NCBI RefSeq assembly: GCF_016903815.1
Contig: NZ_CP069973.1
DNA from: Escherichia coli
GTDB taxonomy: Bacteria > Pseudomonadota > Gammaproteobacteria > Enterobacterales > Enterobacteriaceae
Strand: one strand, 5' to 3'
Length of the DNA: 64,000 nucleotides
A program made the translations under genes and the position numbers. A model generated the notes under the pieces. The model worked only from the letters and a program-made list of their open reading frames with translations. It ran no database searches and was not told the origin of the DNA. This document shows positions 11,862 to 17,626 of the stretch, in pieces. Within the stretch, counting starts at the first letter, position 1. The number at the start of each line of letters is the position of its first letter.

Positions 11862-12155
11862 TTATTGATTATCAACAGGAAGAAAAGAAACCAAACGCAC
11901 CCCATCCAAATCCACCGGAATACGTCTATTTTCACCCCAGGTCTGAAATTCAAAACCCGACTCGGTATTGGTCGCCCAGGCCATTACCACATTTCCGCAA
12001 CCTGCCAGTTGAGAGATTTGCTGCCAGATCATCTCCCGAATACGTTTGGACGTATCTCCGACATAAACACCGGCACGCACTTCCAGGAGCCAGATCGCGA
12101 TCCGTCCACGTAAGCGCGGAGGGACATTTTCTGTAACAACGACGACCATACTCAT
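11862..12155 (-). CDS. cas2: CRISPR-associated endoribonuclease Cas2
   Basis: 97-aa ORF ([18 protein letters not shown]...), recognised as I-E Cas2; array-adjacent; overlaps cas1 stop. Confidence 0.95.
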
Positions 12156-13075
12156 CCGCCGCGTCCCCGGTGACCGCTATCGCCCAGCGTTTCAGGTTCA
12201 GGGATGGCAGGCGGTAACATATCCGGCGCGGGTTGTGGTGGTTCAATTTCACCTGCGGCAAGCACTTCCTCGATTAACGGAATTAATTTGCCCGTTAACT
12301 TACTGCTACGGAAAATATCACGACAGGCCAACCTGACTTCTTTATCTGGTTCTGCGGGTTGCCTCGCTGCTATTTCAAATGCCTTTGGCACAACCGAATC
12401 AAATTTAATGATATCGGCTATGTCATAAACAAATGAAAGCGGTTTGCCACTATGGATAAATCCAATAGCGGGCGCATATCCCGCGGCTAATACTGCCGCT
12501 TCAGAAATACCGTACAGACATGATGTGGCAGCACTGATGCAGCGATTCACAACATCGCCTTTTTCCCAGTCTTTAGGATCGTATTTGCGACCATTCCATT
12601 TCACACCATATTGTTTCGCCAGTAATGCATACGTCTGGCGAACGCGGGATCCCTCAATTCCACGTAGCTGCTCCACTGAACGGCGAGCTGGCGGTGGCTC
12701 ACGAAAACGTAATTCATACATTTTGCGCACCACCTTCAGACGTAGATCTTCCGTTAAAGCCAGCTTTGCCTGGTAGAGTAACTTATCAGCACGCGCCCCA
12801 CCGGGTTGTCCGGAAGAGTAGACGCGAACACCCGCTTCACCGACCCAGACCAGTAGCGTCCCCACCGTGGCGGCCAGATGCACCGCCGCGTGGGAAACTC
12901 TCGTTCCCGGTTCGAGCATAATGCAGGCGACCGATCCCACCGGAATGTGCGTGCGGATCCCGGTTTTGTCGATCAGCACGAAAGCGCCGTCCAGTACGTC
13001 GATTTGACCGTACTGGAGGAAGATCATAGAGGTGCGATCTTTTAACGGGATCGGACTCAGTGGTACAAACGTCAC
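12152..13075 (-). CDS. cas1: CRISPR-associated integrase Cas1
   Basis: 307-aa ORF recognised as I-E Cas1. The start codon appears to be GTG. Overlaps the cas6e stop. Confidence 0.95.
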
Positions 13076-13722
13076 GCCTCTGCTCCGGGTTTGATCAGCA
13101 TCAGACCACAGCCGAACGCGCGGCTTTTGCCATACCCCTGGCTCAGACGTTGCAGAAATAACCCAGGATCGGTGACCGTAAGCATCCCCGTATAATCCAC
13201 GCTACTGAACTGGATCAGTTGCCGGGAGTTTTCCCGCCGCAGTTGCTGTTGTCGGTAGGCATCGACCGAGGTATCCAGTAGTGTAAAACCGCTTCTTTCC
13301 CCCTGCGCTGCCAGCCAGTCCAGCGCCGCCTGTTGTTGATGCAACCAGACATCACTTCCTTCCACCTGCCCCCTCACCTGCCGTTTCGCCTCCATCAGCA
13401 AGTCGTGGCGTTTGCCCGCTTTACAAATTGTTGGATTCGCCCGCAGGTTGAAACAAAGGGATTGTCCGGTACGCAACTCTGGCGCAAATGGTCGGCATTC
13501 GATGGTGAAAATATCACTTTCCGCCGGGCGTTCCTGCGACAGGACAAAAAAGCGAAACGCCCCCTGGAGTTCTTCCCGACGATAAAGAAATTGCCTTTCT
13601 TTGCCGCCAGGAAAAAGATCCCACAGCCACTGATGCATTACATATTCACCGCGACCCACCAAATGCAGCAACTGCGCAGGCAAAAGCTGGCCGGTATGTA
13701 AGGTTATTCTTGAGAGGTACAT
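13072..13722 (-). CDS. casE: CRISPR pre-crRNA endoribonuclease Cas6e (CasE/Cse3)
   Basis: Track ORF 13072..13860 trimmed to internal ATG (MYLSRITLHTGQ...), about 216 aa, with AGGAGG upstream. C-terminal glycine-rich G(F/M)GCGL-type motif. Start choice is inferred. Confidence 0.85.
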   Translation of the reverse strand: MYLSRITLHTGQLLPAQLLHLVGRGEYVMHQWLWDLFPGGKERQFLYRREELQGAFRFFVLSQERPAESDIFTIECRPFAPELRTGQSLCFNLRANPTICKAGKRHDLLMEAKRQVRGQVEGSDVWLHQQQAALDWLAAQGERSGFTLLDTSVDAYRQQQLRRENSRQLIQFSSVDYTGMLTVTDPGLFLQRLSQGYGKSRAFGCGLMLIKPGAEA

Positions 13723-15516: not shown

Positions 15517-15530
15517 GAGATAGTCCTTTA

Positions 15531-16067
15531 TTAATTTTGTTCGTTATCGGCGTCGCCAGCCTGGTAATATTCCAGCGCCCAGCGGATACGGATAAATTCT
15601 GTTGGCCGCTGCTGGCGGCGGTGATGATTGAGCAGGTCGTCGCTCTCCTGGCACCAGCGGAAAATATCTTCTGCCAAAGAGATAAGATTGACGGAACCAT
15701 TTAATAATTTGACCGCGCGACGTAACTGACGCAGTAAATCATCAGGCGTTTTTACTGCCGACAGGCGAGTAAAACGCCCCTCCGACATTACCGCCGCCAG
15801 CTGCGCGGCAAAAGGCTGCCGTTCATCAATAGCTTTAACATTGGCGCTAACTGCGGCGACCAGCGCCAGTGCGGTAAAACGCCACTCTTGTGCTTCAATT
15901 TTCCACAAAGTGTGGGTCTGCATCAGCAGAGAACGAAACCCTTCTGACAGACAAACATCATTAACCGTTGTGCTACGCCGCAGACTGGCACGATTGCCGC
16001 GTTTTTCCTGCAACTCTTCGTGCCATTTACGCAGCGTGGCTTTGTGCTCCTCTTTTACAATACTCAT
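15531..16067 (-). CDS. casB: Cascade small subunit Cse2 (CasB)
   Basis: 178-aa ORF between cse1 and cas7. Assigned by position and size; I do not recognise the sequence itself. Confidence 0.8.
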   Translation of the reverse strand: MSIVKEEHKATLRKWHEELQEKRGNRASLRRSTTVNDVCLSEGFRSLLMQTHTLWKIEAQEWRFTALALVAAVSANVKAIDERQPFAAQLAAVMSEGRFTRLSAVKTPDDLLRQLRRAVKLLNGSVNLISLAEDIFRWCQESDDLLNHHRRQQRPTEFIRIRWALEYYQAGDADNEQN

Positions 16068-17626
16068 TCAGCAGCCTCCTGCTTTTTCTCCCTGGCGGCT
16101 TTAGCATTTTGCTTCTCCGCCGATGTTGTAAAATATTTCTTGCGCGCGGTCATGACGCGTTTCAAATCAACGGGCTCATATGGATTGGTGAAGACACGCT
16201 CGTCAAAATCCTGACGCGCGAATAACCAAATTTCCTTTTGCCATTTGCTGAGTAATTCATCCGCATCCTGACCTTCTTCAATGTGGCGCACTAACCTCAG
16301 GAAGCGATGCTGAGTTTTGTTCCAGAAGTCGATATCCACAAAACTGAAATCACCCCGTGCACCTTTTGGATCGGAGAACCACGCTTCTTTCAATGCACTC
16401 CGTAACAGACTCAGAATCCGTGAAGCCGTTTGCGCAGCCAGCCGCAGCTTCGGTATCTGGCCTTCTTTTTTATCGAGCAGCAGCGGAAAATGGTGTTCGT
16501 ACCAACAGCGCGCTTTCATGTTGTCAAAATCATAACCAAATCCCCACAGGCCCACTTTTGCCTGCTTGAGACTGCTGGCATTAAAGAGTTTCACCACCAG
16601 CGCGGGAAGTTCCGTATTGTTTTCTGATTTACCCGTTTCGATAAGGCCTAACCAGTCGCGCCAGATTAAACCGCCTGGTTGTGGTTTGACCGAGTAAAAC
16701 TCGCCGCCCTCTTTAAGGGGTACACGGTAAGGCGTTAAGGGATGCTGCCACATGGCATAATTCGCGCCGTAATTTTTGGTCGTCATCAGGCTCAGGAGCG
16801 CGTCGTTCTGCTCGCCGCAAATATCGCAGTTGCCGACTGTCGTGGTATTAAAATCAATACGAATACGCCGCGGCATTCCCCAGTACGCCTGGAGTTTATT
16901 AACCTGATCATCGGTTACCACCGCACCGGCCAGTTCGCTGGTACGCGTCGGGCCAAGCCAGGGGAAAACCAGATCGTCAAATTTTTTGGGTAGCGGTAAG
17001 TCGGCTTCGTCCTGCGGCATCACATTGAGCCACAGTTTGCGCCACAAGGGCGTTTGTTGATTGCCCTGATATTCCTGTAATTCAATCAGAGTGGTCATCG
17101 GCCCACCGCCGCGTAAACCGGTGCGGTAGCCTTTACCACCTGACGGCGCATTTAACTGTAGGGAGAACAGAGCTAACGCAGAACAATGTGGGCACAGGTA
17201 TTCCGTTACACCACGCTTGATAAAGTGGTCTTTATTAAACTTCGTTGTTTGAGCGCCGGGAATCTCAGGCAGTAGCGAAGCGACCTGAACTTTATCTCCT
17301 GTGAGCGCCTCGAAATCCTGCATAAATGAAGGGGAATCTGGCCCAAACTGGAAAGCGTGTTCTAAGGACAGCAATGCTTCCCGTAGCTTTTCAGATTCCA
17401 GTCCGTCTTCCCAGATATCATCCCAACGACGATGATCTTTTGGCGCAAAGCTGGTTTGTAGTAGCCCCAGCAAAAACTGCCATGCCGCTCCCTGGAGATC
17501 TGCCCGTGGCGCAGCAATATCGACAACATTTTCATCCGCCAGATCGACAGGCGCCAGTTTGCCTGTCGTTCCGTCTTTATAACGAACGGGCAACCACGGG
17601 GTTGTCAGAAGTGAAAACGAGTTCAT
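16064..17626 (-). CDS. casA: Cascade large subunit Cse1 (CasA)
   Basis: Track ORF 16064..17695 trimmed to internal ATG (MNSFSLLTTPWLPVRY...) with GAGAGGA upstream, about 520 aa. Assigned by position and N-terminal resemblance; start uncertain (alternative ATG 6 bp upstream). Confidence 0.82.
   Translation of the reverse strand: MNSFSLLTTPWLPVRYKDGTTGKLAPVDLADENVVDIAAPRADLQGAAWQFLLGLLQTSFAPKDHRRWDDIWEDGLESEKLREALLSLEHAFQFGPDSPSFMQDFEALTGDKVQVASLLPEIPGAQTTKFNKDHFIKRGVTEYLCPHCSALALFSLQLNAPSGGKGYRTGLRGGGPMTTLIELQEYQGNQQTPLWRKLWLNVMPQDEADLPLPKKFDDLVFPWLGPTRTSELAGAVVTDDQVNKLQAYWGMPRRIRIDFNTTTVGNCDICGEQNDALLSLMTTKNYGANYAMWQHPLTPYRVPLKEGGEFYSVKPQPGGLIWRDWLGLIETGKSENNTELPALVVKLFNASSLKQAKVGLWGFGYDFDNMKARCWYEHHFPLLLDKKEGQIPKLRLAAQTASRILSLLRSALKEAWFSDPKGARGDFSFVDIDFWNKTQHRFLRLVRHIEEGQDADELLSKWQKEIWLFARQDFDERVFTNPYEPVDLKRVMTARKKYFTTSAEKQNAKAAREKKQEAAE

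Follow-up and report, generated by a model that had tools for sequence, protein, structure and literature searches.

Do the short overlaps between the stop and start codons of neighbouring cas genes in a type I-E CRISPR-Cas operon reflect a coordinated synthesis of the Cascade subunits, or are they the ordinary texture of a compact operon? We addressed this question for the cse1-cse2-cas7-cas5-cas6e-cas1-cas2 genes at positions 11862-17626 (minus strand) of a stretch of 64,000 nucleotides (nt) of Escherichia coli DNA from contig NZ_CP069973.1, hereafter called the window. An earlier note, made from the letters of this stretch, had described coupled stop/start junctions along the operon and considered them consistent with stoichiometric co-translation of Cascade subunits. 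Our answer, given with high confidence, is that the locus is a standard operon of the cas-E1 variant with the start codons annotated in RefSeq, and that its overlaps correspond to ordinary compaction, probably accompanied by partial translational coupling.

The overlaps described in the note were borne out to the base, the sequence and RefSeq being in agreement. On the minus strand, the cse1 stop and the cse2 start share 4 nt (16064..16067, ATGA), as do the cas6e stop and the GTG start of cas1 (13072..13075, GTGA) and the cas1 stop and the cas2 start (12152..12155, ATGA). The cas5/cas6e overlap, previously put at about 19 bp, is exactly 19 nt long (13704..13722, minus strand; ATGTACCTCTCAAGAATAA), and the Shine-Dalgarno (SD) motif of cas6e, AAGGAGG, is located within the cas5 coding sequence (CDS). 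The note did not mention the non-overlapping junctions, namely a gap of +14 nt at cse2/cas7, a gap of +10 nt at cas7/cas5 and a spacer of +97 nt at cas3/cse1; cas7 thus overlaps neither of its neighbours. The listing of open reading frames (ORFs) and direct reading of the strand placed all eight cas genes, cas3 included, co-directionally on the minus strand. The chromosome of E. coli strain 7/2 (NZ_CP023820.1) matches the window at 100% identity, and its CDS coordinates from RefSeq and the Prokaryotic Genome Annotation Pipeline, once moved onto the window, coincide exactly with the gene starts chosen in the note.

Two of these starts, those of cse1 and cas6e, had been presented as the least certain of the operon. 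The mechanical ORFs do reach upstream of the chosen codons, to TTG 17695 for cse1 (23 more codons) and to ATG 13860 for cas6e (46 more codons). If these longer frames were real, giving a Cse1 of 543 aa and/or a Cas6e of 262 aa, the cas5/cas6e overlap would grow to 157 nt and the cas3-cse1 spacer would shrink to 28 nt. We ran the scoring of alternative starts that the note had proposed as a check, and as it had stated the internal ATGs are preceded by SD motifs, which were the best of the candidates. For cse1 (16064..17626, minus strand, 520 aa), ATG 17626 (MNSFSLLTTPWLPV) follows an SD motif GAGAGG by 6 nt (-5.8 kcal/mol), to be compared with -3.1 kcal/mol, essentially no SD, at TTG 17695. Position 1 of the casA_cse1 profile falls on residue 28 of the long ORF, 4 residues past the methionine encoded at 17626, and residue 2 of CasA in the PDB was aligned to the same residue 28. 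In E. albertii a TAA interrupts the extension frame 12 codons upstream of cse1, and in Citrobacter the sequence upstream of cse1 is unrelated, the extension being missing. For cas6e (13072..13722, minus strand, 216 aa, MYLSRITL), the near-perfect SD AAGGAGG lies 5 nt upstream of ATG 13722 and reaches -11.4 kcal/mol versus -4.1 kcal/mol for ATG 13860. Position 1 of both the Pfam and the NCBIfam casE_Cse3 (Cas6e) profiles is the methionine at 13722, to which the native methionine of K-12 CasE also aligns; Citrobacter carries a GTG where this ATG stands, and the SD is kept. Over the 138 nt upstream of cas6e, the codon changes relative to Citrobacter youngae are mostly synonymous in the cas5 frame (15, against 6 non-synonymous) and nearly all non-synonymous in the putative extension frame (23, against 2 synonymous), which also acquires stop codons. 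Taken with the profile, structure and SD data, this contrast implies that the cas6e extension is a mere open frame over cas5. Both extension frames are open in this strain, and that of cas6e stays open in E. coli EC21Z-014 and in E. albertii; as no family profile or solved homologue covers either extension and RefSeq retains the short forms, we consider the long forms extremely improbable.

A Cse1 start only two codons earlier, at ATG 17632 (MRMNSFSLL...), has slightly more in its favour and is still improbable. This codon is in frame and kept in E. coli EC21Z-014 and E. albertii, and its duplex energy with the anti-SD is close to that of the downstream ATG (-5.2 versus -5.8 kcal/mol). The GAGG core, however, abuts ATG 17632 with zero spacing and stands 6 nt before ATG 17626; Citrobacter has no equivalent of ATG 17632 (the M22 codon), a CAT standing in its place, and retains the downstream ATG only, and RefSeq also uses 17626. 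On the SD, profile, PDB, comparative and RefSeq evidence together, we rejected both the long ORFs and a start at ATG 17632. Conversely, the internal starts agree with the family N-termini, as the note had argued, in the NCBIfam, Pfam and PDB alignment coordinates alike. The cse1 start is well supported and, far from being one of the least certain, that of cas6e ranks with the most secure of the operon. The GTG start of cas1 (Cas1e, 12152..13075, minus strand, 307 aa; NCBIfam cas1_ECOLI, 380.9 bits) is well supported too. RefSeq uses it, E. albertii has an ATG (ATGA) at the same position as GTG 13075, Citrobacter has a GTG (GTGA) with an in-frame TAG two codons upstream, and the protein is 85% identical to K-12 Cas1 with the alignment starting from residue 1.

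Two further observations were made on start codons. A phmmer match between the cas6e extension (HHQSGAVAQQGGT, 13723-13860) and residues 9-20 of PDB entry 4dzd was discarded, as it corresponds to the His-tag/thrombin linker (HHSSGLVPRGS) of the crystallised CasE construct and not to CasE itself; expression tags in PDB sequences can thus yield spurious N-terminal homology. Outside the cse1-cas2 operon, the annotated cas3 ATG at 20423 has no detectable SD (+0.4 kcal/mol) and AT-rich surroundings (GC 0.41 over 20000-20499), and a GTG in the same frame, 14 codons further on, is preceded by one of moderate strength (-5.5 kcal/mol). We regard the cas3 start as less secure than all those within the operon.

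To place the overlaps against a background, we used the RefSeq annotation of the whole window, which provides 40 other co-directional pairs of adjacent genes. Eleven of these 40 pairs overlap, by 1, 4, 7, 10, 20 or 23 nt, and among the 19 pairs that lie no more than 25 nt apart the count is likewise 11; in the cas operon, four of six junctions overlap. Fisher tests gave p = 0.08 for 4/6 versus 11/40 and p = 1.0 versus 11/19. A special enrichment of overlaps in the cas operon was consequently rejected, their frequency being the same as in the other tight pairs of the window. In E. coli at large, co-directional pairs are most often arranged with a -4 overlap, and 24% of pairs lie within -8 to +6 nt (PMC10666635). 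Real as they are, these overlaps correspond to what is usual in operons of E. coli and in the type I-E operon family.

The junctions are also conserved in close relatives (overlaps are counted as negative distances and gaps as positive ones). E. albertii and Citrobacter keep -4, -19 and -4 at cse1/cse2, cas5/cas6e and cas6e/cas1, respectively. The -4 state of cse1/cse2 is shared by E. coli EC21Z-014, E. albertii, Citrobacter and Serratia, with -8 in K-12; cas5/cas6e is at -19 in E. albertii as in Citrobacter, against -14 in K-12, and Serratia, Pantoea and Xenorhabdus all have -10. The experimentally studied cas-E2 operon of K-12 (casABCDE-cas1-cas2) has the gene order and families of the window, and its junctions are cas3/casA +414, casA/casB -8, casB/casC +12, casC/casD +2, casD/casE -14, casE/cas1 +15 (with an ATG start) and cas1/cas2 +1. 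The two operons therefore overlap at the same two Cascade-internal junctions and have gaps around casC/cas7; their Cascade and Cas3 proteins are only 21-35% identical, compared with about 85% for Cas1 and Cas2. They differ at casE/cas1 and cas1/cas2, where K-12 has gaps of 15 nt and 1 nt in place of the GTGA and ATGA overlaps of the window, and in the spacer downstream of cas3 (414 nt in K-12, 97 nt in the window).

The comparison was extended to at least 120 type I-E loci, retrieved from contigs of one genome per species by means of a degenerate nucleotide pattern that represents a conserved motif of Cas7 and fits the two E. coli variants alike. Iterated phmmer/hmmsearch served to build the family profiles, and starts were picked near the N-terminus implied by homology; the procedure reproduced 21 of the 21 annotated junctions of three E. 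coli control loci. All survey figures hold among the matches listed. Overlaps were found at cse1/cse2 in 73% of the surveyed loci (-4 being the modal state, 54 of 100 loci), at cse2/cas7 in 27%, at cas7/cas5 in 36%, at cas5/cas6e in 80% (with lengths from -1 to -41), at cas6e/cas1 in 25% and at cas1/cas2 in 71%. The overlap fraction thus differs by junction (chi-square over the six junctions, p = 2e-21), and giving one vote to each 70%-identity Cas7 cluster yielded similar fractions, with 68, 26, 42, 75, 19 and 71%, respectively. The window shows the family-typical state at five of the six junctions and the minority state (about 25%) at cas6e/cas1. Read from sequence comparison, this junction-specific pattern would be the sole mildly new element of the analysis, as a modest comparative observation. 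Over the diverse loci L004-L123, the commonest cas1/cas2 state was a 20-nt overlap (23 of 69), in which the cas1 TGA lies inside a conserved Cas2 N-terminus, MLVIV(V/L)EN; the enterobacterial ATGA came second.

The ATGA, GTGA and ATGA motifs at three junctions give the layout of coupled gene pairs. Such 4-nt overlaps are the classic substrate of termination-reinitiation in E. coli pairs (PMC6728339, PMC10666635), and coupling may therefore reasonably be inferred here. In E. coli and Haloferax test pairs, -4 and -1 overlaps were strictly coupled (PMC6728339, PMC10666635), translation being strictly coupled in 13 of 14 overlapping pairs tested (Huber et al. 2019, PMC6728339). Reinitiation falls steeply with distance, coupling fading over about 20 nt, and at short range it varies from gene to gene (PMC6728339, PMC10666635). 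Overlaps are enriched among genes for subunits of heteromeric complexes (PMC6728339, PMC10666635, PMC12548453), and the products of the window, Cascade and Cas1-Cas2, likewise belong to such complexes. The window shares ATGA or GTGA at three junctions with the termination-reinitiation pairs of this literature (Huber et al. 2019, PMC6728339; 2023, PMC10666635; PMC12548453), but its 19-nt cas5/cas6e overlap is longer than the tested -1, -4 and -8 classes. Two models of coupling have been reviewed, RNA unfolding on the one hand and ribosome scanning with reinitiation on the other (PMC12548453). Co-transcription of the cas genes is deduced from the homologous S. Typhi operon (PMC8039139), and a targeted literature search found no paper on translational coupling within cas operons specifically. 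The coordinates, identities and starts of the genes and the conservation of their junctions are established by the sequence data; from the layout of the junctions we infer the coupling of these cas genes, its mechanism and any effect on subunit ratios.

Wherever the overlap is 4 nt, ribosomes that have finished the upstream gene could reinitiate at the start codon lying across its stop. The greatest effect would be expected for cas1, with its GTG start and a structured initiation region (predicted opening energy 12.8 kcal/mol), and for cas2 (Cas2e, 11862..12155, minus strand, 97 aa), which has a weak SD (-5.7 kcal/mol) and the initiation region predicted to be the most structured in the operon (18.5 kcal/mol). 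Coupling would prevent the adaptation proteins Cas1 and Cas2 from exceeding the level of the upstream genes. The strong SDs of cse2 (Cas11, 15531..16067, minus strand, 178 aa; AGGAGG 7 nt upstream, -10.3 kcal/mol) and of cas6e would allow additional de novo initiation, favoured by ribosomes that arrive from upstream and unfold the mRNA. For cas6e, reinitiation is no more likely than initiation that is de novo or assisted by unfolding, given its near-perfect SD and the 19-nt overlap. The cse2 SD is found in a small hairpin directly before the ATGA (stem AGCAG/CUGCU, loop GAGG; 16070-16083, mRNA strand AGCAGGAGGCUGCU), whose reverse complement was a plus-strand match in our terminator scan; ribosomes completing cse1 would melt this hairpin.

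How would these junctions bear on the composition of Cascade, which is Cse1(1):Cse2(2):Cas7(6):Cas5(1):Cas6e(1) (PMC12235044)? With a ratio of 1:2:6:1:1, one-to-one coupling cannot set the subunit ratios. Of the stoichiometric co-translation put forward in the earlier note, coupling itself thus stays plausible and the stoichiometric part goes too far: the ratios are unequal, the six-copy cas7 is flanked by non-overlapping junctions, two of the four overlaps, cas6e/cas1 and cas1/cas2, are not between Cascade subunits, and cas6e has a strong SD of its own. De novo initiation at cse2 would fit two Cse2 copies per Cse1. The initiation region of cas7 (casC, 14461..15516, minus strand, 351 aa) is predicted to be the most accessible of the operon, with an opening energy of 4.4 kcal/mol versus 6.7-18.5 kcal/mol for the other genes, and also of the family among the matches listed (predicted medians of 7.8 versus 9.2-13.5 kcal/mol, paired p from 4e-4 to 1e-17). 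Uncoupled on both sides and with an open initiation region, cas7 would be initiated independently and at a higher rate, in keeping with its six copies. As far as sequence-based predictions go, a layout in which cas7 is uncoupled and most accessible would be compatible with proportional synthesis of Cascade.

Several observations weigh against giving the overlaps a functional role through coupling. Other tight pairs of the window overlap just as often, so that the locus can be explained without any special selection. The K-12 variant is functional although gaps separate cas6e from cas1 (+15) and cas1 from cas2 (+1), and overlaps at these two junctions are therefore not needed for function. The accessibility of cas7 is confounded with the position of its start in an AT-richer intergenic spacer, the starts used in the survey are heuristic and the surveyed loci are not phylogenetically independent. 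Moreover, this operon is silenced by H-NS in laboratory E. coli.

A rival is a purely neutral explanation, in which the overlaps are by-products of genome compaction and of start/stop drift, each gene having its own ribosome binding site and no functionally relevant coupling taking place. The 11 overlaps among the 19 other tight pairs agree with it, as do the drift of the cas5/cas6e overlap length between relatives (-1, -10, -14, -19), the K-12 junctions without overlap at cas6e/cas1 and cas1/cas2, and the strong SDs that cse2 and cas6e possess of their own (-10.3 and -11.4 kcal/mol). We nevertheless find it unlikely: an overlap rate that varies from 25% to 80% by junction (p = 2e-21, among the matches listed) is not what uniform neutral drift predicts, the weak SDs and structured initiation regions of cas2 and cas1 are typical of genes that depend on upstream translation, and the tested overlapping pairs were strictly coupled in 13 of 14 cases (PMC6728339). 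At the opposite end, the pattern could represent a conserved type I-E design, in which Cse1 to Cse2, Cas5 to Cas6e and Cas1 to Cas2 are overlapping and coupled, Cas7, with the most accessible initiation region, and the interference/adaptation boundary (cas6e/cas1) are uncoupled, and the ratios of Cascade and of Cas1-Cas2 are encoded by the micro-architecture of the operon and not by promoters. This stronger proposal is tentative, and we rather doubt it. Ordinary compaction with probable partial coupling is thus the reading that we retain.

The identity of the locus was established as follows. The same cas operon recurs, at 90-100% identity, in about 2,400 complete genomes of E. coli. All eight Cas proteins score above the curated cut-offs of type I-E Pfam and NCBIfam models, including cas7, cas5 (casD, 13704..14450, minus strand, 248 aa) and cas2, the last two also being annotated in RefSeq. 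The type I-E signature proteins are present: cse1 (casA, Cas8e) scored 608.9 bits with casA_cse1 (cut-off 70) and cse2 (casB) 102.7 bits with casB_cse2 (cut-off 28.5), and Pfam CRISPR_Cse1 and CRISPR_Cse2 recovered them as well. Upstream of the operon, 97 nt from cse1, cas3 (17724..20423, minus strand, 899 aa) contains Pfam Cas3_HD and Cas3-like_C, exceeds the cut-offs of NCBIfam cas3_core and cas3_HD, and has a RefSeq CDS. The genes follow the canonical order cas3-cse1-cse2-cas7-cas5-cas6e-cas1-cas2 on one strand and adjoin a CRISPR array with 29-nt repeats and spacers of about 32 nt. This array (11178..11765, minus strand) is separated from cas2 by a leader of about 96 nt and consists of 10 repeats of 29 nt with a 61-nt period (CGGTTTATCCCCGCTGGCGCGGGGAACAC and variants) plus a degenerate terminal repeat; RefSeq has a direct_repeat feature at 11191-11765. 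Tandem Repeats Finder returned nothing in the CRISPR region because the spacers differ, and a repeat search recovered the array. A second annotated array (direct_repeat, 38903-39236) is located between ygcE and queE.

Assignment to the cas-E1 variant follows from Cascade and Cas3 proteins of the E1 type and from a hok/sok module beside cas3 (PMC3903273). This variant is the majority form in E. coli, common to E. albertii and related to loci of Salmonella and Citrobacter (Almendros et al. 2014, PMC3903273); consistently, Cas7 of the window is 96% identical to that of E. albertii. The iap-cysH position, the hok/sok module beside cas3 and the gene order are all those of cas-E1, without any difference. 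The Hok/Gef family toxin CDS is at 20618-20770 (minus strand), between cas3 and cysH. Every E. coli has a hok/sok module unless its cas genes are of the K-12 type (E2) (PMC3903273), and at the position of the module K-12 has only a sokX remnant. Farther away, an IS1397 transposase (IS3 family, with a programmed frameshift) occupies 28362-29710, between ygcP and ygcQ.

Transcription signals were searched for over 11000-21000. The terminator scan detected no terminator-like site on the coding strand at any cas junction, and its count in this interval was at shuffle level. A sigma-70 scan of the same interval returned 3 promoter-like sites versus 9.0 in shuffles, which is uninformative on internal promoters. 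The spacer between cas3 and cse1 (17627-17723) is 97 nt long, versus 414 nt in K-12, 89 nt in E. albertii and 11 nt in Citrobacter youngae, and cas3 overlaps cse1 in 44-47% of the surveyed type I-E loci, among the matches listed. In K-12, the Pcas promoter region sits in the cas3-casA spacer. The simple sigma-70 scan found no promoter-like site in the spacer of the window, and the E1 cse1 operon may have its promoter within the 3' end of cas3, or transcription may read through from cas3.

A parallel to the cse1/cse2 junction is found in types I-B, I-C and I-D, where Cas11 is produced from within cas8 or cas10d (McBride et al. 2020, bioRxiv 10.1101/2020.04.18.045682; PMC11899642), large and small subunits being encoded back to back as in type I-E. 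In those types the Cas11 initiation site is inside the CDS of the large subunit; in type I-E, the cse2 SD lies within cse1 and the cse2 start overlaps the cse1 stop. Unlike the in-frame internal Cas11 product, cse2 is a separate, out-of-frame gene with a 4-nt overlap, and its ATGA junction may be regarded as a looser analogue of internal Cas11 production.

For this locus the consequences are small: RefSeq already holds the genes, starts and overlaps, the 4-nt overlaps are textbook operon biology, and the coupling mechanism is a well-described general one. For the majority E1 variant, on which much less work has been done than on that of K-12, the correct gene models are those with a short Cse1, a short Cas6e and a Cas1 initiated at GTG. 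Splitting the genes, tagging them or recoding their junctions should be expected to alter the expression of cse2, cas6e, cas1 and especially cas2. Finally, the family-wide junction-specific pattern could guide the design of heterologous Cascade expression.

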